From assembly GCF_013167455.1 (NCBI RefSeq), contig NZ_CP038328.1: a DNA stretch of 64,000 nucleotides. One strand, given 5' to 3'. A model generated the notes under the pieces. The model saw only the letters and a list, made by a program, of their open reading frames with translations, made no database searches and was not told the origin of the DNA. Each line of letters begins with the position of its first letter. The first letter of the stretch is position 1. The translations under genes were made by a program, and so were the position numbers. Positions 20,224 to 49,712 of this stretch are shown one piece after another. The DNA comes from Escherichia coli O157:H7 (GTDB lineage: Bacteria > Pseudomonadota > Gammaproteobacteria > Enterobacterales > Enterobacteriaceae).

Positions 20224-21345
20224 ATGTCAAAAGTCGCTCTCATCACCGGTGTAACCGGACAAGACGGTTCTTACCTGGCAGAGTTTCTGCTGGAAAAAGG
20301 TTACGAGGTGCATGGTATTAAGCGTCGCGCATCGTCATTCAACACCGAGCGCGTGGATCACATTTATCAGGATCCGCACACCTGCAACCCGAAATTCCAT
20401 CTGCATTATGGCGACCTGAGTGATACCTCCAACCTGACGCGTATTTTGCGTGAAGTGCAGCCGGATGAAGTGTACAACCTGGGCGCAATGAGCCACGTTG
20501 CGGTTTCTTTTGAGTCACCGGAATATACCGCTGACGTCGACGCGATGGGTACGCTGCGCCTGCTGGAGGCGATCCGCTTCCTCGGTCTGGAAAAGAAAAC
20601 CCGTTTCTATCAGGCTTCCACCTCTGAACTGTATGGTCTGGTGCAGGAAATTCCGCAGAAAGAGACCACGCCGTTCTATCCGCGCTCTCCGTATGCGGTC
20701 GCCAAACTGTATGCCTACTGGATCACCGTCAACTACCGTGAATCCTACGGCATGTATGCCTGTAACGGTATTCTCTTCAACCATGAATCCCCGCGCCGCG
20801 GCGAAACCTTCGTTACCCGCAAAATCACCCGCGCAATCGCCAACATCGCCCAGGGGCTGGAGTCGTGCCTGTACCTCGGCAATATGGATTCCCTGCGTGA
20901 CTGGGGCCATGCCAAAGACTACGTAAAAATGCAGTGGATGATGCTGCAACAGGAACAGCCAGAAGATTTCGTTATCGCGACCGGCGTTCAGTACTCCGTA
21001 CGTCAGTTCGTAGAAATGGCGGCAGCACAGCTGGGCATCAAACTGCGCTTTGAAGGCACGGGCGTTGAAGAGAAGGGCATTGTGGTTTCCGTCACCGGGC
21101 ATGACGCGCCGGGTGTTAAACCGGGTGATGTGATTATCGCCGTTGATCCGCGTTACTTCCGTCCGGCTGAAGTTGAAACGCTGCTCGGCGACCCGACCAA
21201 AGCGCACGAAAAACTGGGCTGGAAACCGGAAATCACCCTCAGAGAGATGGTGTCTGAAATGGTGGCTAATGACCTCGAAGCGGCGAAAAAACACTCTCTG
21301 CTGAAATCTCACGGCTACGACGTGGCGATCGCGCTGGAGTCATAA
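20224..21345 (+). CDS. gmd: GDP-mannose 4,6-dehydratase (colanic acid copy)
   Basis: [50 protein letters not shown]... Confidence 0.95.
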
Positions 21346-21347
21346 GT

Positions 21348-22313
21348 ATGAGTAGACAACGCATTTTTATTGCTGGCCATCGCGGGATGGTCGGTTCCGC
21401 CATCAGGCGGCAGCTCGAACAGCGCGGTGATGTGGAACTGGTATTACGCACCCGCGACGAGCTGAACCTGCTGGACAGCCGCGCCGTGCATGATTTCTTT
21501 GCCAGCGAACGTATTGACCAGGTCTATCTGGCGGCCGCGAAAGTGGGCGGCATTGTTGCCAACAACACGTATCCGGCGGATTTCATCTATCAGAACATGA
21601 TGATTGAGAGCAACATCATTCACGCCGCGCATCAGAACGACGTGAACAAACTGCTGTTTCTCGGATCGTCCTGCATCTACCCGAAACTGGCAAAACAGCC
21701 GATGGCAGAAAGCGAGTTATTGCAGGGCACGCTGGAGCCGACCAACGAGCCTTACGCCATTGCCAAAATCGCCGGGATCAAACTGTGCGAATCATACAAC
21801 CGCCAGTACGGACGCGATTACCGCTCAGTCATGCCGACCAACCTGTATGGCCCGCATGACAACTTCCACCCGAGTAATTCGCATGTGATCCCTGCATTGC
21901 TGCGTCGCTTCCACGAGGCGACGGCACAGAATGCACCGGACGTGGTGGTGTGGGGCAGCGGTACGCCGATGCGAGAATTTCTGCACGTCGATGATATGGC
22001 GGCGGCGAGCATTCATGTCATGGAGCTGGCGCATGAAGTCTGGCTGGAGAACACCCAGCCGATGCTGTCGCACATTAACGTCGGCACGGGCGTTGACTGC
22101 ACTATCCGCGAGCTGGCGCAAACCATCGCCAAAGTGGTGGGTTACAAAGGTCGGGTGGTTTTTGATGCCAGCAAACCGGATGGTACGCCGCGCAAACTGC
22201 TGGATGTGACGCGCCTGCATCAGCTTGGCTGGTATCACGAAATCTCACTGGAAGCGGGGCTTGCCAGCACTTACCAGTGGTTCCTTGAGAATCAAGACCG
22301 CTTTCGGGGGTAA
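21348..22313 (+). CDS. fcl: GDP-L-fucose synthase (colanic acid copy)
   Basis: [44 protein letters not shown]... Confidence 0.95.
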
Positions 22314-22315
22314 TG

Positions 22316-22795
22316 ATGTTTTTACGTCAGGAAGACTTTGCCACGGTAGTGCGCTCCACACCGCTTGTCTCTCTCGACTTTATTGTCGAGAACAGTCGCG
22401 GCGAGTTTCTGCTTGGCAAAAGAACCAACCGCCCGGCGCAGGGTTACTGGTTTGTGCCGGGAGGGCGCGTGCAGAAAGACGAAACGCTGGAAGCCGCATT
22501 TGAGCGGCTGACGATGGCGGAACTGGGGCTGCGTCTGCCGATAACAGCAGGCCAGTTTTACGGTGTCTGGCAGCACTTTTATGACGATAACTTCTCCGGC
22601 ACGGATTTCACCACTCACTATGTGGTGCTCGGTTTTCGCTTCAGAGTAGCGGAAGAAGAACTGTTACTGCCGGATGAGCAGCATGACGATTACCGCTGGC
22701 TGACGCCGGACGCGCTGCTCGCCAGTAACGATGTTCACGCTAACAGCCGCGCCTATTTTCTCGCTGAGAAGCGTGCCGGAGTACCCGGATTATGA
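22316..22795 (+). CDS. gmm: GDP-mannose mannosyl hydrolase (Nudix)
   Basis: [50 protein letters not shown]...; start may be the adjacent ATG at 22313. Confidence 0.9.
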
Positions 22796-24015
22796 AAATA
22801 CTGGTCTACGGCATTAACTACTCGCCGGAGTTAACCGGCATCGGCAAATACACCGGCGAGATGGTGGAATGGCTGGCGGCGCAAGGTCATGAGGTGCGGG
22901 TTATTACCGCACCGCCTTACTACCCGCAGTGGCAAGTGGGCGAGAACTATTCCGCCTGGCGGTACAAACGAGAAGAGGGGGCCGCTACGGTGTGGCGCTG
23001 CCCGCTGTACGTGCCAAAACAGCCGAGCACCCTGAAACGCCTGTTGCATCTCGGCAGTTTTGCCGTCAGCAGTTTTTTCCCGTTGATGGCGCAACGTCGC
23101 TGGAAGCCGGATCGCATTATCGGCGTAGTGCCAACGCTGTTTTGCACGCCGGGAATGCGCCTGCTGGCGAAACTCTCTGGCGCGCGTACCGTGCTGCATA
23201 TTCAGGATTACGAAGTAGATGCCATGCTGGGGCTGGGCCTTGCCGGAAAAGGCAAAGGCGGCAAAGTGGCACAGCTGGCAACGGCGTTCGAACGTAGCGG
23301 ACTGCATAACGTCGATAACGTTTCCACGATTTCGCGTTCGATGATGAATAAAGCCATCGAAAAAGGCGTGGCGGCGGAAAACGTCATCTTCTTCCCCAAC
23401 TGGTCGGAAATCGCCCGTTTTCAGCATGTTGCAGACGCCGATGTTGATGCCCTTCGTAACCAGCTTGGCCTGCCGGATAACAAAAAAATCATTCTTTACT
23501 CCGGCAATATTGGTGAAAAGCAGGGGCTGGAAAACGTTATTGAAGCAGCCGATCGCCTGCGCGATGAACCGCTGATTTTTGCCATTGTCGGGCAGGGCGG
23601 CGGCAAAGCGCGGCTGGAAAAAATGGCGCAGCAGCGTGGACTGCGCAACATGCAATTTTTCCCGCTGCAATCGTATGACGCTTTACCCGCACTGCTGAAG
23701 ATGGGCGATTGCCATCTGGTGGTGCAAAAACGCGGCGCGGCAGATGCCGTATTGCCGTCGAAACTGACCAATATTCTGGCAGTAGGCGGTAACTCGGTGA
23801 TTACTGCTGAAGCCCACACAGAACTGGGACAGCTTTGCGAAACCTTTCCGGGCATTGCGGTTTGCGTAGAACCGGAATCGGTTGAGGCGCTGGTGGCGGG
23901 GATTCGTCAGGCGCTCCTGCTGCCCAAACACAACACGGTGGCACGTGAATATGCCGAACGCACGCTCGATAAAGAGAACGTGTTACGTCAATTTATAAAT
24001 GATATTCGGGGATAA
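22792..24015 (+). CDS. wcaI: Colanic acid glycosyltransferase (GT4)
   Basis: 407 aa; position in cluster. Confidence 0.85.
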
Positions 24016-24017
24016 TT

Positions 24018-25454
24018 ATGGCGCAGTCGAAACTCTATCCAGTTGTGATGGCAGGTGGCTCCGGTAGCCGCTTATGGCCGCTTTCCCGCGTACTTTATCC
24101 CAAGCAGTTTTTATGCCTGAAAGGCGATCTCACCATGCTGCAAACCACCATCTGCCGCCTGAACGGCGTGGAGTGCGAAAGCCCTGTGGTGATTTGCAAT
24201 GAGCAGCACCGCTTTATTGTTGCGGAACAACTGCGTCAACTGAACAAACTCACTGAGAACATTATTCTCGAACCGGCAGGGCGTAACACAGCACCGGCCA
24301 TTGCGCTGGCGGCGCTGGCGGCAAAACGTCATAGCCCGGAGAACGACCCATTAATGCTGGTGCTGGCGGCGGATCATGTGATTGCCGATGAAGACGCATT
24401 CCGCGCCGCCGTGCGTAACGCTATGCCGTATGCCGAAGCGGGCAAGCTGGTGACCTTCGGCATTGTGCCGGATCTACCTGAAACCGGATATGGCTATATT
24501 CGTCGCGGTGAAGTGTCGGCGGGTGAGCAGGATACGGTGGCCTTTGAAGTGGCGCAGTTTGTCGAAAAACCAAATCTGGAAACCGCGCAGGCCTATGTGG
24601 CAAGCGGCGAATATTACTGGAACAGCGGTATGTTCCTGTTCCGTGCCGGACGCTATCTCGAAGAACTGAAAAAATATCGCCCGGATATTCTCGACGCCTG
24701 TGAAAAAGCGATGAGCGCCGTCGATCCGGATCTCGATTTTATTCGCGTGGATGAAGACGCGTTTCTGGCCTGCCCGGAAGAGTCGGTGGATTACGCGGTC
24801 ATGGAACGTACGGCAGATGCCGTTGTGGTGCCGATGGATGCGGGCTGGAGCGATGTCGGCTCCTGGTCCTCATTATGGGAGATCAGCGCCCACACCGCCG
24901 AGGGCAACGTTTGCCACGGCGATGTGATTAATCACAAAACTGAAAACAGCTATGTGTATGCCGAATCTGGCCTGGTCACCACCGTCGGGGTGAAAGATTT
25001 GGTGGTAGTGCAGACCAAAGATGCGGTGCTGATTGCCGACCGTAACGCGGTGCAGGATGTGAAAAAAGTGGTCGAGCAGATCAAAGCCGATGGTCGCCAT
25101 GAGCATCGGGTGCATCGCGAAGTCTATCGCCCGTGGGGCAAATATGACTCTATCGACGCGGGCGACCGCTACCAGGTGAAACGCATCACCGTGAAACCGG
25201 GCGAAGGCTTGTCGGTACAGATGCACCATCACCGCGCGGAACACTGGGTGGTTGTCGCGGGAACGGCAAAAGTCACCATTGACGGTGATATCAAACTGCT
25301 TGGTGAAAACGAGTCGATTTATATTCCGCTGGGGGCGACGCACTGCCTGGAAAACCCGGGGAAAATTCCGCTCGATTTAATTGAAGTGCGCTCCGGCTCT
25401 TATCTCGAAGAGGATGATGTGGTGCGCTTCGCGGATCGCTACGGACGGGTGTAA
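24018..25454 (+). CDS. cpsB: Mannose-1-phosphate guanylyltransferase (colanic acid copy)
   Basis: 478 aa [24 protein letters not shown]...; cupin-type C-terminal domain. Confidence 0.93.
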
Positions 25455-25598
<144 letters not shown>

Positions 25599-25646
25599 TT
25601 GGCCGTTTCGGTCAGGGCCAACTATTGCCTGAAAAAGGGTAACGAT

Positions 25647-27017
25647 ATGAAAAAATTAACCTGCTTTAAAGCCTATGATATTCGCGGGAAATTAGGCGAA
25701 GAACTGAATGAAGATATTGCCTGGCGCATTGGTCGTGCCTATGGCGAATTTCTCAAACCGAAAACCATTGTGTTAGGCGGTGATGCCCGTCTCACCAGCG
25801 AAACCTTAAAACTGGCGCTGGCAAAAGGTTTACAGGATGCGGGCGTTGACGTGCTGGATATTGGTATGTCCGGCACCGAAGAGATCTATTTCGCCACGTT
25901 CCATCTCGGCGTGGATGGCGGCATTGAAGTTACTGCCAGCCATAACCCGATGGATTACAACGGCATGAAACTGGTGCGCGAAGGGGCTCGCCCGATCAGC
26001 GGCGATACCGGACTGCGCGATGTCCAGCGTCTGGCAGAAGCCAACGACTTTCCTCCCGTTGATGAAACCAAACGCGGTCGCTATCAGCAAATCAATCTGC
26101 GTGACGCTTACGTTGATCACCTGTTCGGTTATATCAACGTCAAAAACCTTACGCCGCTCAAGCTGGTGATCAACTCCGGGAACGGCGCGGCGGGTCCGGT
26201 GGTGGACGCCATCGAAGCCCGCTTTAAAGCCCTCGGCGCACCGGTGGAATTGATCAAAGTGCACAACACGCCCGACGGCAATTTCCCCAACGGTATTCCT
26301 AACCCGCTGCTGCCGGAATGTCGCGACGACACCCGCAATGCGGTCATTAAACACGGCGCGGATATGGGCATTGCTTTTGATGGCGATTTTGACCGCTGTT
26401 TCCTGTTTGACGAAAAAGGGCAGTTTATCGAGGGCTACTACATTGTCGGTCTGCTGGCAGAAGCGTTCCTCGAAAAAAATCCCGGCGCGAAGATCATCCA
26501 CGATCCACGTCTCTCCTGGAATACCGTTGATGTGGTGACTGCCGCAGGCGGCACCCCGGTAATGTCGAAAACCGGACACGCCTTTATTAAAGAACGGATG
26601 CGCAAGGAAGACGCCATCTACGGTGGCGAAATGAGCGCCCACCATTACTTCCGTGATTTTGCTTACTGCGACAGCGGCATGATCCCGTGGCTGCTGGTCG
26701 CCGAACTGGTGTGCCTGAAAGGAAAGACGCTGGGCGAACTGGTGCGCGACCGGATGGCAGCGTTTCCGTCAAGCGGTGAGATCAACAGCAAACTGGCGCA
26801 ACCCGTTGAGGCGATTAACCGCGTGGAACAGCATTTTAGCCGTGAGGCGCTGGCGGTGGATCGCACCGATGGCATCAGCATGACCTTTGCCGACTGGCGC
26901 TTTAATCTGCGCTCCTCCAACACCGAACCGGTGGTGCGGTTGAATGTGGAATCACGCGGTGATGTGCCGCTGATGGAAGCGCGAACGCGAACTCTGCTGA
27001 CGTTGCTGAACGAGTAA
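25647..27017 (+). CDS. cpsG: Phosphomannomutase (colanic acid copy)
   Basis: [29 protein letters not shown]...; phosphohexomutase active site TASHNP. Confidence 0.93.
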
Positions 27018-32633: not shown

Positions 32634-34028
32634 ATGCCATTTAAAAAACTCTCCCGACGCACCTTCCTGACGGCAAGCTCGGCGCTTGCCTTCCTTCATA
32701 CCCCTTTCGCTCGCGCACTTCCCGCCCGACAAAGCGTTAATATCAACGACTACAACCCTCACGACTGGATCGCCTCATTTAAACAAGCCTTCAGCGAAGG
32801 GCAAACGGTTGTCGTGCCTGCTGGATTCGTTTGTGACAATATCAACACCGGCATCTTCATTCCTCCTGGCAAAACGTTACACATCCTTGGAAGCCTGCGC
32901 GGCAACGGCAGAGGGCGATTTGTCTTACAGGACGGCAGCCAGGTGACAGGGGAGGAGGGCGGCAGTATGCATAACATCACCCTGGATGTGCGTGGTTCTG
33001 ACTGCACCATCAAAGGGCTGGCGATGAGCGGCTTTGGTCCGGTAACGCAGATTTATATCGGCGGCAAAAACAAACGGGTCATGCGCAACCTGACCATCGA
33101 TAACCTGACCATTAGCCACGCTAATTACGCCATCTTACGCCAGGGATTTCATAACCAGATTATCGGTGCCAACATCACCAATTGTAAGTTCAGCGACTTA
33201 CAGGGCGATGCCATTGAATGGAACGTGGCGATTAACGACCGCGATATTTTGATCTCCGACCATGTCATCGAGCGCATCAACTGTACTAACGGCAAAATCA
33301 ACTGGGGCATTGGCATAGGCCTTGCGGGAAGCACTTACGATAATAATTACCCGGAAGATCAGGCAGTGAAAAACTTTGTCGTGGCGAATATCACGGGATC
33401 GGATTGTCGGCAGTTGATACATGTTGAAAATGGTAAACATTTTGTTATTCGTAATATCAAAGCCCGCAATATCACGCAGGATTTCAGTAAGAAAGCAGGT
33501 ATTGATAACGCCACAGTCGCTATTTACGGTTGTGACAATTTCGTGATTGATAATATTGAAATGATTAATAGCGCCGGGATGTTAATCGGCTATGGGGTAA
33601 TTAAAGGCAATTATCTCTCGATTCCGCAAAATTTCCGAGTGAATAATATTCAACTGGATAACACCCATCTTGCTTATAAATTGCGCGGCCTCCAAATCTC
33701 TGCCGGGAATGCCGTCTCCTTTGTGGCACTAACTAACATTGAGATGAAGCGTGCGTCGCTGGAGTTACACAACAAACCGCAACATCTTTTTCTGCGTAAT
33801 ATCAAAGTGATGCAGGAATCCTCTGTTGGACCCGCATTGATTATGAACTTCGACATGCGCAAAGACGTTCGAGGCGTCTTTATGGCGAAAGAAGAAACAC
33901 TGCTGTCTCTTGCAAATGTTCATGCGGTGAATGAGAAAGGACAAAGCTCCGTCGATATCGACAGGATTAATCACCATATTGTTAATGTGGAAAAGATTAA
34001 CTTTAGATTGCCGGAACGGAGAGAGTAG
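32634..34028 (+). CDS. wcaM: Colanic acid biosynthesis protein WcaM (secreted, right-handed beta-helix-like)
   Basis: 464 aa with Tat-like signal ([14 protein letters not shown]); last gene of the cluster. Confidence 0.85.
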
Positions 34029-34185
34029 ATTTGCGACCATTCATAAACTTACTGGATATAATGTTCTAAAAGATTATAATCCTCACACTAACTGTTAAAG
34101 CTGGGGCTGGGCAGCATTGACTACTCAGGGAAGGTACTCATCTTTATCTTGTGTTTCTTACGTAACAACCAGACTAAAGTGATTT

Positions 34186-35181
34186 ATGAACGATAACGTT
34201 TTGCTCATAGGAGCTTCCGGATTCGTAGGAACCCGACTACTTGAAACGGCAATTGCTGACTTTAATATCAAGAACCTGGACAAACAGCAGAGCCACTTTT
34301 ATCCAGAAATCACACAGATTGGTGATGTTCGTGATCAACAGGCACTCGACCAGGCGTTAGCCGGTTTTGACACTGTTGTACTACTGGCAGCGGAACACCG
34401 CGATGACGTCAGCCCTACTTCTCTCTATTATGATGTCAACGTTCAGGGTACCCGCAATGTGCTGGCGGCCATGGAAAAAAATGGCGTTAAAAATATCATC
34501 TTTACCAGTTCCGTTGCTGTTTATGGTTTGAACAAACACAACCCTGACGAAAACCATCCACACGACCCTTTCAACCACTACGGCAAAAGCAAGTGGCAGG
34601 CGGAGGAAGTGCTGCGTGAATGGTATAACAAAGCACCAACAGAACGTTCATTAACTATCATCCGTCCTACCGTTATCTTCGGTGAACGCAACCGCGGTAA
34701 CGTCTATAACTTGCTGAAACAGATCGCTGGCGGCAAGTTTATGATGGTGGGCGCAGGGACTAACTATAAGTCCATGGCTTATGTTGGAAACATTGTTGAG
34801 TTTATCAAGTACAAACTGAAGAATGTTGCCGCAGGTTACGAGGTTTATAACTACGTTGATAAGCCAGACCTGAACATGAACCAGTTGGTTGCTGAAGTTG
34901 AACAAAGCCTGAACAAAAAGATCCCTTCTATGCACTTGCCTTACCCACTAGGAATGCTGGGTGGATATTGCTTTGATATCCTGAGCAAAATTACGGGCAA
35001 AAAATACGCTGTCAGCTCTGTGCGCGTGAAAAAATTCTGCGCAACAACACAGTTTGACGCAACGAAAGTGCATTCTTCAGGTTTTGTGGCACCGTATACG
35101 CTGTCGCAAGGTCTGGATCGAACTCTGCAGTATGAATTCGTCCATGCCAAAAAAGACGACATAACGTTTGTTTCTGAGTAA
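34186..35181 (+). CDS. gne: NAD-dependent sugar 4-epimerase (short-chain dehydrogenase fold), Gne-like
   Basis: 331 aa; N-terminal Rossmann GASGFVG; catalytic YGKSK; sits between wcaM and galF where K-12 has no gene; lower GC than its neighbours. Confidence 0.75.
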   Translation: MNDNVLLIGASGFVGTRLLETAIADFNIKNLDKQQSHFYPEITQIGDVRDQQALDQALAGFDTVVLLAAEHRDDVSPTSLYYDVNVQGTRNVLAAMEKNGVKNIIFTSSVAVYGLNKHNPDENHPHDPFNHYGKSKWQAEEVLREWYNKAPTERSLTIIRPTVIFGERNRGNVYNLLKQIAGGKFMMVGAGTNYKSMAYVGNIVEFIKYKLKNVAAGYEVYNYVDKPDLNMNQLVAEVEQSLNKKIPSMHLPYPLGMLGGYCFDILSKITGKKYAVSSVRVKKFCATTQFDATKVHSSGFVAPYTLSQGLDRTLQYEFVHAKKDDITFVSE

Positions 35182-35423
35182 TGCAGACGAGTCAGAGAAA
35201 AAAGGACCAGGTTGGACTACGATTATTCGGAAAGAGGTACTGATTAAATTATCAGTATGTGGATTTCCGAGTAATCCGAGTAACCCAGATGCTGATGGTG
35301 TGTAGTGTTATCGTAAGGTTTAATCAAAGTTATGCGGAACTAAGCTTTGGTATATAGCCATAACGTTTGGCTAACCTATGGCAATAATTTACGCACTATC
35401 AGCCACTTAGAGGTAGGAAAAGA

Positions 35424-36317
35424 ATGACGAATTTAAAAGCAGTTATACCGGTAGCAGGTCTTGGGATGCATATGTTGCCTGCCACTAAGGCGATTCCCAA
35501 AGAGATGCTACCGATCGTCGACAAGCCAATGATTCAGTACATTGTTGACGAGATTGTGGCTGCAGGGATCAAAGAAATCCTCCTGGTAACTCACGCGTCC
35601 AAGAACGCAGTCGAAAACCACTTCGACACCTCTTATGAATTAGAATCTCTCCTTGAACAGCGCGTGAAGCGTCAACTACTGGCGGAAGTACAATCTATCT
35701 GTCCGCCGGGCGTGACCATTATGAACGTGCGTCAGGGTGAACCTTTAGGTTTAGGCCACTCCATTTTATGTGCGCGACCTGCCATTGGTGACAATCCATT
35801 TGTCGTGGTGCTGCCAGACGTTGTGATCGACGACGCCAGCGCCGACCCGCTACGCTACAACCTTGCTGCCATGATTGCGCGCTTCAATGAAACGGGACGC
35901 AGCCAGGTGCTGGCAAAACGTATGCCGGGCGACCTCTCTGAATACTCCGTCATCCAGACCAAAGAACCGCTGGATCGTGAAGGCAAAGTCAGCCGCATTG
36001 TTGAATTTATCGAAAAGCCGGATCAGCCGCAGACGCTGGACTCAGACATCATGGCCGTTGGTCGATATGTGCTTTCTGCCGATATTTGGCCGGAACTGGA
36101 ACGTACTCAGCCTGGTGCATGGGGACGTATTCAGCTGACTGATGCCATTGCTGAGCTGGCAAAAAAACAATCCGTTGATGCAATGCTGATGACTGGCGAC
36201 AGTTACGACTGCGGTAAAAAAATGGGCTATATGCAGGCGTTTGTGAAGTATGGACTACGCAACTTGAAAGAAGGGGCGAAGTTCCGCAAAGGTATCGAGA
36301 AGCTGTTAAGCGAATAA
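35424..36317 (+). CDS. galF: UTP-glucose-1-phosphate uridylyltransferase-like regulatory subunit GalF
   Basis: 297 aa [43 protein letters not shown]... Confidence 0.93.
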
Positions 36318-36543: not shown

Positions 36544-36577
36544 CACTGGTAGCGATTAAGCCAGGGGCGGTAGCGTG
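36544..36577 (+). promoter_or_regulatory. JUMPstart/ops element of the O-antigen operon
   Basis: CACTGGTAGCGATTAAGCCAGGGGCGGTAGCGTG; ops core GGCGGTAGCGTG at 36566-36577, about 60 bp upstream of the first O-antigen gene. Confidence 0.85.
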
Positions 36578-36635: not shown

Positions 36636-37418
36636 ATGAACAAAGAAACCGTTTCAATAATTATGCCCGTTTACAATGGGGCCAAAACTATAATCTCATC
36701 AGTAGAATCAATTATACATCAATCTTATCAAGATTTTGTTTTGTATATCATTGACGATTGTAGCACCGATGATACATTTTCATTAATCAACAGTCGATAC
36801 AAAAACAATCAGAAAATAAGAATATTGCGTAACAAGACAAATTTAGGTGTTGCAGAAAGTCGAAATTATGGAATAGAAATGGCCACGGGGAAATATATTT
36901 CTTTTTGTGATGCGGATGATTTGTGGCACGAGAAAAAATTAGAGCGTCAAATCGAAGTGTTAAATAATGAATGTGTAGATGTGGTATGTTCTAATTATTA
37001 TGTTATAGATAACAAAAGAAATATTGTTGGCGAAGTTAATGCTCCTCATGTGATAAATTATAGAAAAATGCTCATGAAAAACTACATAGGGAATTTGACA
37101 GGAATCTATAATGCCAACAAATTGGGTAAGTTTTATCAAAAAAAGATTGGTCACGAGGATTATTTGATGTGGCTGGAAATAATTAATAAAACAAATGGTG
37201 CTATTTGTATTCAAGATAATCTGGCGTATTACATGCGTTCAAATAATTCACTATCGGGTAATAAAATTAAAGCTGCAAAATGGACATGGAGTATATATAG
37301 AGAACATTTACATTTGTCCTTTCCAAAAACATTATATTATTTTTTATTATATGCTTCAAATGGAGTCATGAAAAAAATAACACATTCACTATTAAGGAGA
37401 AAGGAGACTAAAAAGTGA
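36636..37418 (+). CDS. wbdN: O-antigen glycosyltransferase (GT2)
   Basis: 260 aa; GT2 signature (VSIIMPVYNG, DDCSTD, DADD); AT-rich codon usage; first gene after galF in the O157-type order. Confidence 0.8.
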   Translation: MNKETVSIIMPVYNGAKTIISSVESIIHQSYQDFVLYIIDDCSTDDTFSLINSRYKNNQKIRILRNKTNLGVAESRNYGIEMATGKYISFCDADDLWHEKKLERQIEVLNNECVDVVCSNYYVIDNKRNIVGEVNAPHVINYRKMLMKNYIGNLTGIYNANKLGKFYQKKIGHEDYLMWLEIINKTNGAICIQDNLAYYMRSNNSLSGNKIKAAKWTWSIYREHLHLSFPKTLYYFLLYASNGVMKKITHSLLRRKETKK

Positions 37419-38599
37419 AGTCAGCGGCTAAGTTGATTTTTTTATTCCTATTTACACTTTATAGTCTCCAGTTGTATGGGGTTATCATAGATGATCGTAT
37501 AACAAATTTTGATACAAAGGTATTAACTAGTATTATAATTATATTTCAGATTTTTTTTGTTTTATTATTTTATCTAACGATTATAAATGAAAGAAAACAG
37601 CAGAAAAAATTTATCGTGAACTGGGAGCTAAAGTTAATACTCGTTTTCCTTTTTGTGACTATAGAAATTGCTGCTGTAGTTTTATTTCTTAAAGAAGGTA
37701 TTCCTATATTTGATGATGATCCAGGGGGGGCTAAACTTAGAATAGCTGAAGGTAATGGACTTTACATTAGATATATTAAGTATTTTGGTAATATAGTTGT
37801 GTTTGCATTAATTATTCTTTATGATGAGCATAAATTCAAACAGAGGACCATCATATTTGTATATTTTACAACGATTGCTTTATTTGGTTATCGTTCTGAA
37901 TTGGTGTTGCTCATTCTTCAATATATATTGATTACCAATATCCTGTCAAAGGATAACCGTAATCCTAAAATAAAAAGAATAATAGGGTATTTTTTATTGG
38001 TAGGGGTTGTATGCTCGTTGTTTTATCTAAGTTTAGGACAAGACGGAGAACAAAATGACTCATATAATAATATGTTAAGGATAATTAATAGGTTAACAAT
38101 AGAGCAAGTTGAAAGTGTTCCATATGTTGTTTCTGAATCTATTAAGAACGATTTCTTTCCGACACCAGAGTTAGAAAAGGAATTAAAAGCAATAATAAAT
38201 AGAATACAGGGAATAAAGCATCAAGACTTATTTTATGGAGAACGGTTACATAAACAAGTATTTGGAGACATGGGAGCAAATTTTTTATCAGTTACTACGT
38301 ATGGAGCAGAACTGTTAGTTTTTTTTGGTTTTCTCTGTGTATTCATTATCCCTTTAGGGATATATATACCTTTTTATCTTTTAAAGAGAATGAAAAAAAC
38401 CCATAGCTCGATAAATTGCGCATTCTATTCATATATCATTATGATTTTATTGCAATACTTAGTGGCTGGGAATGCATCGGCCTTCTTTTTTGGTCCTTTT
38501 CTCTCCGTATTGATAATGTGTACTCCTCTGATCTTATTGCATGATACGTTAAAGAGATTATCACGAAATGAAAATATCAGTTATAACTGTGACTTATAA
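37415..38599 (+). CDS. wzy: O-antigen polymerase Wzy
   Basis: 394 aa, very hydrophobic polytopic protein, AT-rich, GTG start overlapping wbdN. Confidence 0.75.
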   Translation: MKSAAKLIFLFLFTLYSLQLYGVIIDDRITNFDTKVLTSIIIIFQIFFVLLFYLTIINERKQQKKFIVNWELKLILVFLFVTIEIAAVVLFLKEGIPIFDDDPGGAKLRIAEGNGLYIRYIKYFGNIVVFALIILYDEHKFKQRTIIFVYFTTIALFGYRSELVLLILQYILITNILSKDNRNPKIKRIIGYFLLVGVVCSLFYLSLGQDGEQNDSYNNMLRIINRLTIEQVESVPYVVSESIKNDFFPTPELEKELKAIINRIQGIKHQDLFYGERLHKQVFGDMGANFLSVTTYGAELLVFFGFLCVFIIPLGIYIPFYLLKRMKKTHSSINCAFYSYIIMILLQYLVAGNASAFFFGPFLSVLIMCTPLILLHDTLKRLSRNENISYNCDL

Positions 38600-39314
38600 T
38601 AATGCTGAAGGGTTAGAAAAAACTTTAAGTAGTTTATCAATTTTAAAAATAAAACCTTTTGAGATTATTATAGTTGATGGCGGCTCTACAGATGGAACGA
38701 ATCGTGTCATTAGTAGATTTACTAGTATGAATATTACACATGTTTATGAAAAAGATGAAGGGATATATGATGCGATGAATAAGGGCCGAATGTTGGCCAA
38801 AGGCGACTTAATACATTATTTAAACGCCGGCGATAGCGTAATTGGAGATATATATAAAAATATCAAAGAGCCATGTTTGATTAAAGTTGGCCTTTTCGAA
38901 AATGATAAACTTCTGGGATTTTCTTCTATAACCCATTCAAATACAGGGTATTGTCATCAAGGGGTGATTTTCCCAAAGAATCATTCAGAATATGATCTAA
39001 GGTATAAAATATGTGCTGATTATAAGCTTATTCAAGAGGTGTTTCCTGAAGGGTTAAGATCTCTATCTTTGATTACTTCGGGTTATGTAAAATATGATAT
39101 GGGGGGAGTATCTTCAAAAAAAAGAATTTTAAGAGATAAAGAGCTTGCCAAAATTATGTTTGAAAAAAATAAAAAAAACCTTATTAAGTTTATTCCAATT
39201 TCAATAATCAAAATTTTATTCCCTGAACGTTTAAGAAGAGTATTGCGGAAAATGCAATATATTTGTCTAACTTTATTCTTCATGAAGAATAGTTCACCAT
39301 ATGATAATGAATAA
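38568..39314 (+). CDS. wbdO: O-antigen glycosyltransferase (GT2)
   Basis: 248 aa MKISVITVTYNNAEGLEKTL...IIVDGGSTDGT; GT2 motifs. Confidence 0.78.
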   Translation: MKISVITVTYNNAEGLEKTLSSLSILKIKPFEIIIVDGGSTDGTNRVISRFTSMNITHVYEKDEGIYDAMNKGRMLAKGDLIHYLNAGDSVIGDIYKNIKEPCLIKVGLFENDKLLGFSSITHSNTGYCHQGVIFPKNHSEYDLRYKICADYKLIQEVFPEGLRSLSLITSGYVKYDMGGVSSKKRILRDKELAKIMFEKNKKNLIKFIPISIIKILFPERLRRVLRKMQYICLTLFFMKNSSPYDNE

Positions 39315-40692
39315 AATCAAAAAAATACTTAAATTTTGCACTTTAAAAAAATATGATACATCAAGTGCTTTAGGTAGAGAACAGGAAAGGTACAGGATTA
39401 TATCCTTGTCTGTTATTTCAAGTTTGATTAGTAAAATACTCTCACTACTTTCTCTTATATTAACTGTAAGTTTAACTTTACCTTATTTAGGACAAGAGAG
39501 ATTTGGTGTATGGATGACTATTACCAGTCTTGGTGCTGCTCTGACATTTTTGGACTTAGGTATAGGAAATGCATTAACAAACAGGATCGCACATTCATTT
39601 GCGTGTGGCAAAAATTTAAAGATGAGTCGGCAAATTAGTGGTGGGCTCACTTTGCTGGCTGGATTATCGTTTGTCATAACTGCAATATGCTATATTACTT
39701 CTGGCATGATTGATTGGCAACTAGTAATAAAAGGTATAAACGAGAATGTGTATGCAGAGTTACAACACTCAATTAAAGTCTTTGTAATCATATTTGGACT
39801 TGGAATTTATTCAAATGGTGTGCAAAAAGTTTATATGGGAATACAAAAAGCCTATATAAGTAATATTGTTAATGCCATATTTATATTGTTATCTATTATT
39901 ACTCTAGTAATATCGTCGAAACTACATGCGGGACTACCAGTTTTAATTGTCAGCACTCTTGGTATTCAATACATATCGGGAATCTATTTAACAATTAATC
40001 TTATTATAAAGCGATTAATAAAGTTTACAAAAGTTAACATACATGCTAAAAGAGAAGCTCCATATTTGATATTAAACGGTTTTTTCTTTTTTATTTTACA
40101 GTTAGGCACTCTGGCAACATGGAGTGGTGATAACTTTATAATATCTATAACATTGGGTGTTACTTATGTTGCTGTTTTTAGCATTACACAGAGATTATTT
40201 CAAATATCTACGGTCCCTCTTACGATTTATAACATCCCGTTATGGGCTGCTTATGCAGATGCTCATGCACGCAATGATACTCAATTTATAAAAAAGACGC
40301 TCAGAACATCATTGAAAATAGTGGGTATTTCATCATTCTTATTGGCCTTCATATTAGTAGTGTTCGGTAGTGAAGTCGTTAATATTTGGACAGAAGGAAA
40401 GATTCAGGTACCTCGAACATTCATAATAGCTTATGCTTTATGGTCTGTTATTGATGCTTTTTCGAATACATTTGCAAGCTTTTTAAATGGTTTGAACATA
40501 GTTAAACAACAAATGCTTGCTGTTGTAACATTGATATTGATCGCAATTCCAGCAAAATACATCATAGTTAGCCATTTTGGGTTAACTGTTATGTTGTACT
40601 GCTTCATTTTTATATATATTGTAAATTACTTTATATGGTATAAATGTAGTTTTAAAAAACATATCGATAGACAGTTAAATATAAGAGGATGA
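39301..40692 (+). CDS. wzx: O-antigen flippase Wzx
   Basis: 463 aa polytopic membrane protein; position. Confidence 0.78.
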   Translation: MIMNKIKKILKFCTLKKYDTSSALGREQERYRIISLSVISSLISKILSLLSLILTVSLTLPYLGQERFGVWMTITSLGAALTFLDLGIGNALTNRIAHSFACGKNLKMSRQISGGLTLLAGLSFVITAICYITSGMIDWQLVIKGINENVYAELQHSIKVFVIIFGLGIYSNGVQKVYMGIQKAYISNIVNAIFILLSIITLVISSKLHAGLPVLIVSTLGIQYISGIYLTINLIIKRLIKFTKVNIHAKREAPYLILNGFFFFILQLGTLATWSGDNFIISITLGVTYVAVFSITQRLFQISTVPLTIYNIPLWAAYADAHARNDTQFIKKTLRTSLKIVGISSFLLAFILVVFGSEVVNIWTEGKIQVPRTFIIAYALWSVIDAFSNTFASFLNGLNIVKQQMLAVVTLILIAIPAKYIIVSHFGLTVMLYCFIFIYIVNYFIWYKCSFKKHIDRQLNIRG

Positions 40693-40694
40693 AA

Positions 40695-41789
40695 ATGAAA
40701 TATATACCAGTTTACCAACCGTCATTGACAGGAAAAGAAAAAGAATATGTAAATGAATGTCTGGACTCAACGTGGATTTCATCAAAAGGAAACTATATTC
40801 AGAAGTTTGAAAATAAATTTGCGGAACAAAACCATGTGCAATATGCAACTACTGTAAGTAATGGAACGGTTGCTCTTCATTTAGCTTTGTTAGCGTTAGG
40901 TATATCGGAAGGAGATGAAGTTATTGTTCCAACACTGACATATATAGCATCAGTTAATGCTATAAAATACACAGGAGCCACCCCCATTTTCGTTGATTCA
41001 GATAATGAAACTTGGCAAATGTCTGTTAGTGACATAGAACAAAAAATCACTAATAAAACTAAAGCTATTATGTGTGTCCATTTATACGGACATCCATGTG
41101 ATATGGAACAAATTGTAGAACTGGCCAAAAGTAGAAATTTGTTTGTAATTGAAGATTGCGCTGAAGCCTTTGGTTCTAAATATAAAGGTAAATATGTGGG
41201 AACATTTGGAGATATTTCTACTTTTAGCTTTTTTGGAAATAAAACTATTACTACAGGTGAAGGTGGAATGGTTGTCACGAATGACAAAACACTTTATGAC
41301 CGTTGTTTACATTTTAAAGGCCAAGGATTAGCTGTACATAGGCAATATTGGCATGACGTTATAGGCTACAATTATAGGATGACAAATATCTGCGCTGCTA
41401 TAGGATTAGCCCAGTTAGAACAAGCTGATGATTTTATATCACGAAAACGTGAAATTGCTGATATTTATAAAAAAAATATCAACAGTCTTGTACAAGTCCA
41501 CAAGGAAAGTAAAGATGTTTTTCACACTTATTGGATGGTCTCAATTCTAACTAGGACCGCAGAGGAAAGAGAGGAATTAAGGAATCACCTTGCAGATAAA
41601 CTCATCGAAACAAGGCCAGTTTTTTACCCTGTCCACACGATGCCAATGTACTCGGAAAAATATCAAAAGCACCCTATAGCTGAGGATCTTGGTTGGCGTG
41701 GAATTAATTTACCTAGTTTCCCCAGCCTATCGAATGAGCAAGTTATTTATATTTGTGAATCTATTAACGAATTTTATAGTGATAAATAG
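40695..41789 (+). CDS. per: GDP-perosamine synthase (PLP-dependent DegT/DnrJ/EryC1-family aminotransferase)
   Basis: MKYIPVYQPSLTGKEKEYVNECLDSTWISSKGNYIQKFEN...; aminotransferase fold; the classical O157 rfbE marker position. Confidence 0.88.
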   Translation: MKYIPVYQPSLTGKEKEYVNECLDSTWISSKGNYIQKFENKFAEQNHVQYATTVSNGTVALHLALLALGISEGDEVIVPTLTYIASVNAIKYTGATPIFVDSDNETWQMSVSDIEQKITNKTKAIMCVHLYGHPCDMEQIVELAKSRNLFVIEDCAEAFGSKYKGKYVGTFGDISTFSFFGNKTITTGEGGMVVTNDKTLYDRCLHFKGQGLAVHRQYWHDVIGYNYRMTNICAAIGLAQLEQADDFISRKREIADIYKKNINSLVQVHKESKDVFHTYWMVSILTRTAEEREELRNHLADKLIETRPVFYPVHTMPMYSEKYQKHPIAEDLGWRGINLPSFPSLSNEQVIYICESINEFYSDK

Positions 41790-41813
41790 CCTAAAATATT
41801 GTAAAGGTCATTC

Positions 41814-43028
41814 ATGAAAATTGCGTTGAATTCAGATGGATTTTACGAGTGGGGCGGTGGAATTGATTTTATTAAATATATTCTGTCAATATTAGAAACG
41901 AAACCAGAAATATGTATCGATATTCTTTTACCGAGAAATGATATACATTCTCTTATAAGAGAAAAAGCATTTCCTTTTAAAAGTATATTAAAAGCAATTT
42001 TAAAGAGGGAAAGGCCTCGATGGATTTCATTAAATAGATTTAATGAGCAATACTATAGAGATGCCTTTACACAAAATAATATAGAGACGAATCTTACCTT
42101 TATTAAAAGTAAGAGCTCTGCCTTTTATTCATATTTTGATAGTAGCGATTGTGATGTTATTCTTCCTTGCATGCGTGTTCCTTCGGGAAATTTGAATAAA
42201 AAAGCATGGATTGGTTATATTTATGACTTTCAACACTGTTACTATCCTTCATTTTTTAGTAAGCGAGAAATAGATCAAAGGAATGTGTTTTTTAAATTGA
42301 TGCTCAATTGCGCTAACAATATTATTGTTAATGCACATTCAGTTATTACCGATGCAAATAAATATGTTGGGAATTATTCTGCAAAACTACATTCTCTTCC
42401 ATTTAGTCCATGCCCTCAATTAAAATGGTTCGCTGATTACTCTGGTAATATTGCCAAATATAATATTGACAAGGATTATTTTATAATTTGCAATCAATTT
42501 TGGAAACATAAAGATCATGCAACTGCTTTTAGGGCATTTAAAATTTATACTGAATATAATCCTGATGTTTATTTAGTATGCACGGGAGCTACTCAAGATT
42601 ATCGATTCCCTGGATATTTTAATGAATTGATGGTTTTGGCAAAAAAGCTCGGAATTGAATCGAAAATTAAGATATTAGGGCATATACCTAAACTTGAACA
42701 AATTGAATTAATCAAAAATTGCATTGCTGTAATACAACCAACCTTATTTGAAGGCGGGCCTGGAGGGGGGGTAACATTTGACGCTATTGCATTAGGGAAA
42801 AAAGTTATACTATCTGACATAGATGTCAATAAAGAAGTTAATTGCGGTGATGTATATTTCTTTCAGGCAAAAAACCATTATTCATTAAATGACGCGATGG
42901 TAAAAGCTGATGAATCTAAAATTTTTTATGAACCTACAACTCTGATAGAATTGGGTCTCAAAAGACGCAATGCGTGTGCAGATTTTCTTTTAGATGTTGT
43001 GAAACAAGAAATTGAATCCCGATCTTAA
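41814..43028 (+). CDS. wbdP: O-antigen glycosyltransferase (GT4)
   Basis: 404 aa; GT4-like C-terminal domain; position. Confidence 0.75.
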
Positions 43029-43047
43029 TATATTCAAGAGGTATATA

Positions 43048-44166
43048 ATGACTAAAGTCGCTCTTATTACAGGTGTAACTGGACAAGATGGATCTTATCT
43101 AGCTGAGTTTTTGCTTGATAAAGGGTATGAAGTTCATGGTATCAAACGCCGAGCCTCATCTTTTAATACAGAACGCATAGACCATATTTATCAAGATCCA
43201 CATGGTTCTAACCCAAATTTTCACTTGCACTATGGAGATCTGACTGATTCATCTAACCTCACTAGAATTCTAAAGGAGGTACAGCCAGATGAAGTATATA
43301 ATTTAGCTGCTATGAGTCACGTAGCAGTTTCTTTTGAGTCTCCAGAATATACAGCCGATGTCGATGCAATTGGTACATTACGTTTACTGGAAGCAATTCG
43401 CTTTTTAGGATTGGAAAACAAAACGCGTTTCTATCAAGCTTCAACCTCAGAATTATATGGACTTGTTCAGGAAATCCCTCAAAAAGAATCCACCCCTTTT
43501 TATCCTCGTTCCCCTTATGCAGTTGCAAAACTTTACGCATATTGGATCACGGTAAATTATCGAGAGTCATATGGTATTTATGCATGTAATGGTATATTGT
43601 TCAATCATGAATCTCCACGCCGTGGAGAAACGTTTGTAACAAGGAAAATTACTCGAGGACTTGCAAATATTGCACAAGGCTTGGAATCATGTTTGTATTT
43701 AGGGAATATGGATTCGTTACGAGATTGGGGACATGCAAAAGATTATGTTAGAATGCAATGGTTGATGTTACAACAGGAGCAACCCGAAGATTTTGTGATT
43801 GCAACAGGAGTCCAATACTCAGTCCGTCAGTTTGTCGAAATGGCAGCAGCACAACTTGGTATTAAGATGAGCTTTGTTGGTAAAGGAATCGAAGAAAAAG
43901 GCATTGTAGATTCGGTTGAAGGACAGGATGCTCCAGGTGTGAAACCAGGTGATGTCATTGTTGCTGTTGATCCTCGTTATTTCCGACCAGCTGAAGTTGA
44001 TACTTTGCTTGGAGATCCGAGCAAAGCTAATCTCAAACTTGGTTGGAGACCAGAAATTACTCTTGCTGAAATGATTTCTGAAATGGTTGCCAAAGATCTT
44101 GAAGCCGCTAAAAAACATTCTCTTTTAAAATCGCATGGTTTTTCTGTAAGCTTAGCTCTGGAATGA
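43048..44166 (+). CDS. gmd: GDP-mannose 4,6-dehydratase (O-antigen copy)
   Basis: [50 protein letters not shown]...; protein highly similar to the colanic acid Gmd, but the DNA is AT-rich and diverged. Confidence 0.93.
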
Positions 44167-45134
44167 TGATGAATAAGCAACGTATTTTTATTGCTGGTCA
44201 CCAAGGAATGGTTGGATCAGCTATTACCCGACGCCTCAAACAACGTGATGATGTTGAGTTGGTTTTACGTACTCGGGATGAATTGAACTTGTTGGATAGT
44301 AGCGCTGTTTTGGATTTTTTTTCTTCACAGAAAATCGACCAGGTTTATTTGGCAGCAGCAAAAGTCGGAGGTATTTTAGCTAACAGTTCTTATCCTGCCG
44401 ATTTTATATATGAGAATATAATGATAGAGGCGAATGTCATTCATGCTGCCCACAAAAATAATGTAAATAAACTGCTTTTCCTCGGTTCGTCGTGTATTTA
44501 TCCTAAGTTAGCACACCAACCGATTATGGAAGACGAATTATTACAAGGGAAACTTGAGCCAACAAATGAACCTTATGCTATCGCAAAAATTGCAGGTATT
44601 AAATTATGTGAATCTTATAACCGTCAGTTTGGGCGTGATTACCGTTCAGTAATGCCAACCAATCTTTATGGTCCAAATGACAATTTTCATCCAAGTAATT
44701 CTCATGTGATTCCGGCGCTTTTGCGCCGCTTTCATGATGCTGTGGAAAACAATTCTCCGAATGTTGTTGTTTGGGGAAGTGGTACTCCAAAGCGTGAATT
44801 CTTACATGTAGATGATATGGCTTCTGCAAGCATTTATGTCATGGAGATGCCATACGATATATGGCAAAAAAATACTAAAGTAATGTTGTCTCATATCAAT
44901 ATTGGAACAGGTATTGACTGCACGATTTGTGAGCTTGCGGAAACAATAGCAAAAGTTGTAGGTTATAAAGGGCATATTACGTTCGATACAACAAAGCCCG
45001 ATGGAGCCCCTCGAAAACTACTTGATGTAACGCTTCTTCATCAACTAGGTTGGAATCATAAAATTACCCTTCACAAGGGTCTTGAAAATACATACAACTG
45101 GTTTCTTGAAAACCAACTTCAATATCGGGGGTAA
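44163..45134 (+). CDS. fcl: GDP-L-fucose synthase-like reductase (O-antigen copy)
   Basis: 323 aa [46 protein letters not shown]... Confidence 0.9.
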
Positions 45135-45136
45135 TA

Positions 45137-45646
45137 ATGTTTTTACATTCCCAAGACTTTGCCACAATTGTAAGGTCTACTCCTCTTATTTCTATAGATT
45201 TGATTGTGGAAAACGAGTTTGGCGAAATTTTGCTAGGAAAACGAATCAACCGCCCGGCACAGGGCTATTGGTTCGTTCCTGGTGGTAGGGTGTTGAAAGA
45301 TGAAAAATTGCAGACAGCCTTTGAACGATTGACAGAAATTGAACTAGGAATTCGTTTGCCTCTCTCTGTGGGTAAGTTTTATGGTATCTGGCAGCACTTC
45401 TACGAAGACAATAGTATGGGGGGAGACTTTTCAACGCATTATATAGTTATAGCATTCCTTCTTAAATTACAACCAAACATTTTGAAATTACCGAAGTCAC
45501 AACATAATGCTTATTGCTGGCTATCGCGAGCAAAGCTGATAAATGATGACGATGTGCATTATAATTGTCGCGCATATTTTAACAATAAAACAAATGATGC
45601 GATTGGCTTAGATAATAAGGATATAATATGTCTGATGCGCCAATAA
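45137..45646 (+). CDS. wbdQ: GDP-mannose mannosyl hydrolase (Nudix; O-antigen copy)
   Basis: 169 aa [50 protein letters not shown]... Confidence 0.88.
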
Positions 45647-47076
45647 TTGCTGTAGTTATGGCCGGTGGTACAGGCAGTCGTCTTTGGCCACTTTCTCGTG
45701 AACTATATCCAAAGCAGTTTTTACAACTCTCTGGTGATAACACCTTGTTACAAACGACTTTGCTACGACTTTCAGGCCTATCATGTCAAAAACCATTAGT
45801 GATAACAAATGAACAGCATCGCTTTGTTGTGGCTGAACAGTTAAGGGAAATAAATAAATTAAATGGTAATATTATTCTAGAACCATGCGGGCGAAATACT
45901 GCACCAGCAATAGCGATATCTGCGTTTCATGCGTTAAAACGTAATCCTCAGGAAGATCCATTGCTTCTAGTTCTTGCGGCAGACCACGTTATAGCTAAAG
46001 AAAGTGTTTTCTGTGATGCTATTAAAAATGCAACTCCCATCGCTAATCAAGGTAAAATTGTAACGTTTGGAATTATACCAGAATATGCTGAAACTGGTTA
46101 TGGGTATATTGAGAGAGGTGAACTATCTGTACCGCTTCAAGGGCATGAAAATACTGGTTTTTATTATGTAAATAAGTTTGTCGAAAAGCCTAATCGTGAA
46201 ACCGCAGAATTGTATATGACTTCTGGTAATCACTATTGGAATAGTGGAATATTCATGTTTAAGGCATCTGTTTATCTTGAGGAATTGAGAAAATTTAGAC
46301 CTGACATTTACAATGTTTGTGAACAGGTTGCCTCATCCTCATACATTGATCTAGATTTTATTCGATTATCAAAAGAACAATTTCAAGATTGTCCTGCTGA
46401 ATCTATTGATTTTGCTGTAATGGAAAAAACAGAAAAATGTGTTGTATGCCCTGTTGATATTGGTTGGAGTGACGTTGGATCTTGGCAATCGTTATGGGAC
46501 ATTAGTCTAAAATCGAAAACAGGAGATGTATGTAAAGGTGATATATTAACCTATGATACTAAGAATAATTATATCTACTCTGAGTCAGCGTTGGTAGCCG
46601 CCATTGGAATTGAAGATATGGTTATCGTGCAAACTAAAGATGCCGTTCTTGTGTCTAAAAAGAGTGATGTACAGCATGTAAAAAAAATAGTCGAAATGCT
46701 TAAATTGCAGCAACGTACAGAGTATATTAGTCATCGTGAAGTTTTCCGACCATGGGGAAAATTTGATTCGATTGACCAAGGTGAGCGATACAAAGTCAAG
46801 AAAATTATTGTGAAACCTGGTGAGGGGCTTTCTTTAAGGATGCATCACCATCGTTCTGAACATTGGATCGTGCTTTCTGGTACAGCAAAAGTAACCCTTG
46901 GCGATAAAACTAAACTAGTCACCGCAAATGAATCGATATACATTCCCCTTGGCGCAGCGTATAGTCTTGAGAATCCGGGCATAATCCCTCTTAATCTTAT
47001 TGAAGTCAGTTCAGGGGATTATTTGGGAGAGGATGATATTATAAGACAGAAAGAACGTTACAAACATGAAGATTAA
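45628..47076 (+). CDS. manC: Mannose-1-phosphate guanylyltransferase (O-antigen copy)
   Basis: 482 aa [24 protein letters not shown]...; AT-rich DNA unlike cpsB. Confidence 0.92.
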
Positions 47077-47079
47077 CAT

Positions 47080-48450
47080 ATGAAATCTTTAACCTGCTTT
47101 AAAGCCTATGATATTCGCGGGAAATTAGGCGAAGAACTGAATGAAGATATTGCCTGGCGCATTGGGCGTGCCTATGGCGAATTTCTCAAACCGAAAACCA
47201 TTGTTTTAGGCGGTGATGTCCGCCTCACCAGCGAAGCGTTAAAACTGGCGCTTGCGAAAGGTTTACAGGATGCGGGCGTCGATGTGCTGGATATCGGTAT
47301 GTCCGGCACCGAAGAGATCTATTTCGCCACGTTCCATCTCGGAGTGGATGGCGGCATCGAAGTTACCGCCAGCCATAACCCGATGGATTACAACGGCATG
47401 AAGCTGGTGCGCGAAGGGGCTCGCCCGATCAGCGGTGATACCGGACTGCGCGATGTCCAGCGTCTGGCAGAAGCCAATGACTTCCCTCCTGTCGATGAAA
47501 CCAAACGTGGTCGCTATCAGCAAATCAATCTGCGTGACGCTTACGTTGATCACCTGTTCGGTTATATCAACGTCAAAAACCTCACGCCGCTCAAGCTGGT
47601 GATCAACTCCGGGAACGGCGCAGCGGGTCCGGTGGTGGACGCCATTGAAGCCCGATTTAAAGCCCTCGGCGCACCGGTGGAATTAATCAAAGTACACAAC
47701 ACGCCGGACGGCAATTTCCCCAACGGTATTCCTAACCCGCTGCTGCCGGAATGCCGCGACGACACCCGTAATGCGGTCATCAAACACGGCGCGGATATGG
47801 GCATTGCCTTTGATGGCGATTTTGACCGCTGTTTCCTGTTTGACGAAAAAGGGCAGTTTATCGAGGGCTACTACATTGTCGGCCTGCTGGCAGAAGCGTT
47901 CCTCGAAAAAAATCCCGGCGCGAAGATCATCCACGATCCACGTCTCTCCTGGAACACCGTTGATGTGGTGACTGCCGCAGGCGGCACCCCGGTAATGTCG
48001 AAAACCGGACACGCCTTTATTAAAGAACGTATGCGCAAGGAAGACGCCATCTACGGTGGCGAAATGAGCGCTCACCATTACTTCCGTGATTTCGCTTACT
48101 GCGACAGCGGCATGATCCCGTGGCTGCTGGTCGCCGAACTGGTGTGCCTGAAAGGAAAAACGCTGGGCGAAATGGTGCGCGACCGGATGGCGGCGTTTCC
48201 GGCAAGCGGTGAGATCAACAGCAAACTGGCGCAACCCGTTGAGGCAATTAATCGCGTGGAACAGCATTTTAGCCGCGAGGCGCTGGCGGTGGATCGCACC
48301 GATGGCATCAGCATGACCTTTGCCGACTGGCGCTTTAACCTGCGCTCCTCCAACACCGAACCGGTGGTGCGGTTGAATGTGGAATCACGCGGTGATGTAA
48401 AGCTAATGGAAAAGAAAACTAAAGCTCTTCTTAAATTGCTAAGTGAGTGA
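47080..48450 (+). CDS. manB: Phosphomannomutase (O-antigen copy; near-identical to cpsG at DNA level except the extreme 5' and 3' ends)
   Basis: 456 aa [29 protein letters not shown]...; high-GC body matching cpsG; the last ~20 codons are AT-rich and divergent (...[19 protein letters not shown]). Confidence 0.93.
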
Positions 48451-49650: not shown

Positions 49651-49712
49651 AGCGTGCGGGCTTTCATAATCTTGCATTGGTTTTGATAAGATATTTCTTT
49701 GGAGATGGGAAA

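Follow-up and report, generated by a model that had tools for sequence, protein, structure and literature searches.

The open reading frame between wcaM and galF in Escherichia coli O157:H7 is very probably gnu, encoding an epimerase of undecaprenol-linked N-acetylglucosamine

Introduction

In E. coli O157:H7, an additional gene lies between wcaM and galF, just ahead of the O-antigen gene cluster. What does this gene encode, on which substrate does its product act, and how closely is it tied to the O serotype? An initial annotation, made from the DNA sequence, had placed the product among the nucleotide-sugar 4-epimerases. Here, the locus was analyzed within a stretch of 64,000 nucleotides of an O157:H7 genome, referred to below as the window.

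Genomic context and identity of the gene

The window contains, in order, yegD-alkA-dgcE, the colanic acid cluster, gnu, galF, the O157 O-antigen cluster, gnd-ugd-wzzB, and the his operon. It is collinear with the EC4115 record, with 6/33,395, 4/18,745, and 1/16,256 positions differing across three stretches. According to the annotation of this collinear record, the diguanylate cyclase gene dgcE (1479-4797) is frameshifted, and genes for a small toxin of the RelE/ParE family and for an HTH protein are located between yegH and asmA (8357-8975). The spacer bounded by the wcaM stop and the galF start covers 34029-35423 (1,395 bp), which is exactly the interval delimited in the initial annotation, and the ORF listing shows a single long ORF in it, with no competing long ORF. 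The elements of the region are as follows:

32634-34028, + strand: wcaM, the last gene of the colanic acid cluster (left flank)
34029-34185, + strand: wcaM-gnu spacer, 157 bp, 36.9% GC
34053-34080, + strand: promoter-like site upstream of gnu, a 10-of-12 consensus match (TGGATA-16-TATAAT)
34186-35181, + strand: gnu ORF, ATG start, 331 amino acids plus stop (from the ORF listing)
35182-35423, + strand: gnu-galF spacer, 242 bp
35424-36317, + strand: galF (right flank)
36566-36573, + strand: ops octamer GGCGGTAG of the JUMPstart, in the galF-wbdN spacer ahead of the O157 O-antigen operon
36636-50378, + strand: O157 O-antigen gene cluster (annotation of the collinear EC4115 record, coordinates converted)

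An extra gene between wcaM and galF, as first described, is indeed present in the form of this 331-amino-acid ORF. Its translated product is 100% identical to RefSeq protein WP_000999466.1, named N-acetyl-alpha-D-glucosaminyl-diphospho-ditrans,octacis-undecaprenol 4-epimerase. It is also identical to protein cluster P0001, which has the same product name and 2299 member sequences, and the spacer DNA is 100% identical to that of many E. coli O157:H7 chromosomes. The gene gnu corresponds to locus tag Z3206 in strain EDL933, and its older name is gne. In addition, Cunneen et al. 2013 published two primers located inside O157 gnu, together with a gnu/galF primer pair (PMC3682973). All four (4/4) match the window exactly, in the order and orientation expected:

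34314-34331, + strand: published gnu primer, exact match
34960-34977, - strand: published gnu primer, exact match
35117-35138, + strand: published gnu primer, exact match
35521-35542, - strand: published galF primer, exact match

We conclude with high confidence that the ORF at 34186-35181 is gnu (Z3206), which codes for the E. coli O157 N-acetyl-alpha-D-glucosaminyl-diphospho-undecaprenol 4-epimerase.

The empty site of K-12 and the base composition of gnu

The initial annotation held that K-12 has no gene at this site. This is confirmed by a K-12-lineage genome, in which the wcaM-galF gap measures 174 bp and has no gene inside. When the window is aligned with this empty site, identity continues for approximately 15 nt past the wcaM stop and restarts approximately 40 nt before the galF ATG, leaving the following segment:

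34043-35380, no strand assigned: segment present in gnu-bearing genomes only (from aligning the window to the empty K-12 site; boundaries approximate)

Approximately 1.34 kb in the window stands in place of approximately 115 nt of unrelated K-12 sequence. Insertion of a mobile element was considered and rejected, as the segment is without flanking direct or inverted repeats, insertion sequence (IS), transposase, or integrase, and only short repeats at chance level occur there. The spacer likewise contains no other ORF of at least 80 amino acids with a family match. Judged by this alignment, the wcaM-galF spacers of O157:H7 and K-12 are distinct alleles.

The gene had also been described as noticeably lower in GC content than its neighbors, which holds only in part. 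At 45.5%, gnu lies below galF (50.7%), wcaM as a whole (47.2%), and the entire window (48.2%), but above the 3' half of wcaM. The GC content of wcaM falls from 52.4% in its 5' half to 42.1% in its 3' half, the low-GC tract starting approximately 900 bp upstream of gnu. Since K-12 wcaM is about 95% identical to that of the window, this drop seems to belong to wcaM as such and not to the gnu-bearing allele. The first gene of the O-antigen cluster, wbdN, has a GC content of about 30%, far below that of gnu. Compared with its neighbors, the window, and wbdN, gnu is thus mildly, not strikingly, AT-rich.

Position of gnu relative to the O-antigen operon

The ops octamer of the O-antigen JUMPstart is found downstream of galF, between galF and wbdN, which puts gnu upstream of this element and, in agreement with the initial annotation, outside the JUMPstart-led operon. 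Another canonical ops octamer, at 11102-11109, lies 190 bp upstream of wza and represents the colanic acid JUMPstart; EC4115 reads GGGGGTAG at this position, one of just 4 differences in 18.7 kb. A third GGCGGTAG, located antisense inside yegH (10515-10522), is at chance level for 64 kb.

Gene gnu itself may be transcribed from its own promoter. Eight promoter-like sites occur in the region, compared to 5.4 ± 2.4 in shuffled sequences, a count not above expectation. A terminator scan of the region, including the gnu-galF spacer, found no terminator-like site on the + strand.

The adjoining O157 cluster has the order GT2/wbdN, wzy, GT, wzx, rfbE/per, GT4, gmd, fcl, gmm-like, manC, manB, ISAs1 remnant, and perB. 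In the EC4115 annotation, this cluster includes wzx and wzy but lacks a gene for an initiating transferase, so that the first sugar would depend on WecA plus Gnu. The remnant between manB and perB (48738-49669) is a degraded ISAs1-family transposase gene with a frameshift, an internal stop, and a missing N terminus, according to the same annotation. In addition, a complete GDP-mannose/GDP-fucose gene set occurs twice in the window, at a distance of 23 kb: once in the colanic acid cluster (gmd-fcl-gmm-(wcaI)-cpsB-cpsG, 20224-27017) and once in the O157 cluster (gmd-fcl-gmm-like-manC-manB, 43048-48450).

Distribution and linkage to serotype

The gnu segment is carried by 1323 of 5426 complete E. 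coli genomes and is absent from about three quarters of them, which bears out the proposal that the gene is accessory in the species. Most genomes without gnu show a 2463-bp wcaM-galF arrangement. In 13 genomes, the gnu spacer takes the form of divergent alleles (80 to 95% identity). A plasmid record accounts for one of the matches, and certain genomes match at as many as 3 places. Outside the species, orthologues with 81 to 89% identity occur in Salmonella, Cronobacter, Kluyvera, Enterobacter, Mixta, and other genera.

The suggested link to serotype proved strong, but not absolute. All genomes with the O157 wzy gene (305/305) have a contiguous gnu-galF-wbdN-wzy arrangement, and in a PCR survey of 115 serogroups, the presence or absence of gnu was as expected from the O-antigen structure in 104 (PMC3682973). 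However, an identical Gnu protein is encoded in strain IAI1 beside a quite different O cluster, which may not need Gnu. [quoted passage not shown] 2013, PMC3682973). An O103 genome combines an empty wcaM-galF junction with a clade-A epimerase gene inside the O cluster. This agrees with the published rule that gne serves GalNAc which is not in the first-sugar position (PMC7685785).

The presence of gnu in some genomes that may not need it could indicate a dispensable hitchhiker, or a decaying gene, that travels with the adjoining O-antigen cluster. An IS1-associated loss in strain G6/7 (O169/O183-type; NZ_CP060061.1, L008 1849-3737) points the same way: IS1A takes the place of the entire gnu gene and the wcaM 3' end, and the gnu-galF spacer alone is kept. 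However, the ORF in the window is intact, the identical protein recurs in all member sequences of its cluster, the orthologues extend over many enterobacterial genera at the identities given above, the Z3206 protein is detected in cells, and gnu is conserved in each of the 305 O157 genomes. We regard a hitchhiking or decaying gene as extremely unlikely. An apparently interrupted copy, in O157 strain 27_141091 (NZ_AP026092.1, L009 409-1642), is not an IS insertion. Its insert is approximately 1.2 kb of poly-G/poly-C homopolymer, which marks it as an assembly artifact, and the gene is annotated as two fragments as a result.

Family membership and predicted fold

Gnu matches the Pfam Epimerase family (PF01370) with 107.6 bits, against a cut-off of 20.9 (E = 8.5e-31), as an extended short-chain dehydrogenase (SDR). 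The nucleotide-binding motif GxxGxxG (G9-x2-G12-x2-G15) is present together with S108 and Y132-x3-K136, and among 116 family members, the most divergent of which share 33% identity, these residues show little or no variation. An AlphaFold2 model built from a 116-sequence alignment (pLDDT 96.5, pTM 0.93) predicts an extended two-domain SDR fold; a first model, built from a shallow alignment limited to sequences with 81% identity or more, had a pLDDT of 63 and was discarded. Profile, catalytic motifs, and modeled fold all support the initial reading of the protein as an NAD-dependent SDR-fold epimerase. The solved structures nearest to the model are UDP-hexose and UDP-GlcNAc 4-epimerases and related dehydratases (TM 0.70 to 0.76, 17 to 22% identity). 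No close solved relative was found, with a best PDB sequence E-value of 2e-17 and a structural identity of at most 22%.

With its epimerase fold, complete catalytic motifs, and these top structural matches, Gnu might be taken for a true Gne/GalE nucleotide-sugar epimerase. The cytoplasmic product of such an enzyme would be UDP-GalNAc (or UDP-Gal), with direct transfer of GalNAc-1-P by WecA as the next step. Names in circulation point in this direction as well: some orthologue records read "UDP-N-acetylglucosamine 4-epimerase" or "UDP-glucose 4-epimerase," and a proteome paper labels the protein "putative UDP-galactose 4-epimerase." However, Gnu misses the GalE equivalog TIGR01179 by a wide margin (71.4 bits versus a cut-off of 262.3), and profile positions 2 to 182 alone are matched. 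Its identity is 30% to K-12 GalE and 27%, with 17% gaps, to the cluster-borne epimerase of O103, whereas these two proteins share 53% identity over 336 residues without gaps. Gnu thus does not reach full-length likeness to GalE/Gne at the level seen within the clade (27 to 30% versus 53%). Among the PDB sequence matches listed, E. coli GalE chains align only to residues 45 to 167, the cofactor and catalytic core. On these sequence comparisons, Gnu falls outside the GalE/Gne clade, and the Gne/GalE family membership proposed at first did not hold.

The best matches outside the Epimerase family are lipid-directed SDRs. Pfam 3Beta_HSD, which overlaps PF01370, is also above threshold (95.7 bits). 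The best NCBIfam matches, to HpnA (95.5 versus 367.65) and OleD-type reductases (74.3 and 68.2 versus 580), do not reach their cut-offs, and NSDHL is among the PDB chains. These profile matches offer weak support for a lipid-carrier context. They could also point to a lipid-directed SDR with another reaction (3-beta-HSD/HpnA/OleD-like), unrelated to O-antigen initiation and parked at a recombination-prone site. Besides the unmet NCBIfam cut-offs, this reading has against it that gnu presence tracks first-sugar GalNAc across serogroups (PMC3682973), that linkage to the O157 wzy gene is invariable, and that PMC3682973 relates a UndPP-GlcNAc (undecaprenyl-diphosphate-linked GlcNAc) epimerase activity for the Gnu protein. 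A different lipid-directed reaction is accordingly given next to no probability, and 4-epimerization of a lipid-linked sugar remains our preferred reading of Gnu.

A membrane anchor as the route to a lipid substrate was rejected on a hydropathy and amphipathic-helix scan. No transmembrane or strongly amphipathic segment was found in Gnu, a point against our preferred reading, and the top 19-residue hydropathy, 1.45, falls in the Rossmann beta-1 strand. A proteomic study of O157:H7 found the Z3206 protein, with approximately 25-fold enrichment in an insoluble fraction alongside other O-antigen enzymes. Gnu would be associated with the membrane peripherally.

In a wider search among 50%-identity representatives, 365 clusters score E ≤ 1e-30. 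In this set, Gnu-like domains are fused to GT4 glycosyltransferases in P0140, P0147, P0188, and P0189, and to a PF02397 initiating phosphoglycosyltransferase in P0248. These fusions would equally fit a nucleotide-sugar epimerase and are no more than suggestive of a lipid context. Given the lack of a close solved relative, the confinement of the GalE sequence matches to the core, and this number of clusters, some of them fused, one may speculate that recognition of a polyprenyl-diphosphate-linked sugar by Gnu is structurally unlike that of any solved SDR, and that the family could be a broad class editing lipid-attached sugars. We consider this a long shot. If true, such a class would concern the wider family and not the gene in the window.

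Substrate and proposed pathway

The O157 unit contains one GalNAc and no GlcNAc (PMC3682973). The original assignment of 1998 to 2002 as a UDP-GlcNAc 4-epimerase followed from this composition and from the lack of an initiating transferase gene; according to PMC3682973, it was overturned by Rush et al. 2010. As that work is cited in PMC3682973, PMC7685785, and PMC9680116, the O157 enzyme is inactive on UDP-GlcNAc and converts WecA-made UndPP-GlcNAc to UndPP-GalNAc. The latter is the first sugar of the O157 unit (PMC3682973). As far as found in the literature, the substrate assignment is reported from the enzymology of one laboratory and from comparative genetics.

The UDP-GlcNAc or UDP-Glc substrate that the initial annotation had assumed is thus replaced by lipid-linked GlcNAc, following Rush et al. 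2010 as presented in PMC3682973. The suggested role in supplying GalNAc for the O unit stands, by way of UndPP-GalNAc as related in the same source. Against a nucleotide-sugar epimerase, the absence of UDP-GlcNAc activity reported there adds to the sequence divergence from GalE and Gne. Furthermore, O86 requires gnu and also a separate clade-A gne (PMC3682973), and in strains such as O103, in which GalNAc is not the first sugar, the wcaM-galF site is empty and the cluster itself includes a clade-A gene (PMC7685785). We therefore hold a nucleotide-sugar substrate to be very unlikely and retain the lipid-linked one.

In the proposed pathway, WecA, encoded elsewhere, would move GlcNAc-1-P from UDP-GlcNAc onto undecaprenyl phosphate at the inner face of the inner membrane. 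Gnu, as a peripheral NAD-dependent extended-SDR enzyme, would invert C4 of the lipid-linked sugar to yield UndPP-GalNAc, which WbdN and the other cluster-encoded glycosyltransferases would extend to the O157 unit. By analogy with GalE-type SDR epimerases, the chemistry would proceed by oxidation, rotation, and reduction: bound NAD+ would take the C4 hydride with Tyr132 as the base, the 4-keto intermediate would rotate, and the hydride would be returned to the opposite face. By their conservation, four basic residues (R160, K195, R280, and K283) are candidates for binding of the diphosphate.

This role of Gnu would explain O units that start with GalNAc in O157 and many other serogroups, with WecA making UndPP-GlcNAc only. 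Whether gnu lies ahead of galF serves as a predictor of the sugar with which an O antigen starts. For annotation, gnu should not be named gne or galE, as it still is in some orthologue database records.

Comparison with known systems

Gnu can be set against four groups of related enzymes. The lipid-directed SDRs 3-beta-HSD, NSDHL, HpnA, and OleD act on membrane-embedded lipid substrates and catalyze a net oxidation, reduction, or decarboxylation, not an epimerization. The GnaB/WbpP-type UDP-GlcNAcA (UDP-GlcNAc) 4-epimerases of clade B are SDR 4-epimerases and were likewise once named Gne. They are set apart from Gnu by the published tree (PMC3682973), and no WbpP chain is among the best 60 PDB sequence matches to Gnu.

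Gne and GalE of clade A have in common with Gnu the extended SDR fold, the GxxGxxG motif, the Ser/Tyr/Lys triad, and C4 epimerization, and they likewise help to supply O antigens with GalNAc. They differ in their substrate, which is a nucleotide sugar and not the lipid-linked sugar of Gnu, and alignments of Gnu with GalE/Gne show many gaps after approximately residue 170. The location differs as well, with gne of O103 inside the O cluster and gnu outside.

The last comparison is with Gnu of O157:H7 itself (clade D, Cunneen et al. 2013; EC 5.1.3.26). DNA, accession, locus, and primer sites are all the same, with no differences detected. The gnu gene of the window is the type member of this published enzyme, and its identity, position, function, and distribution are thus already known.
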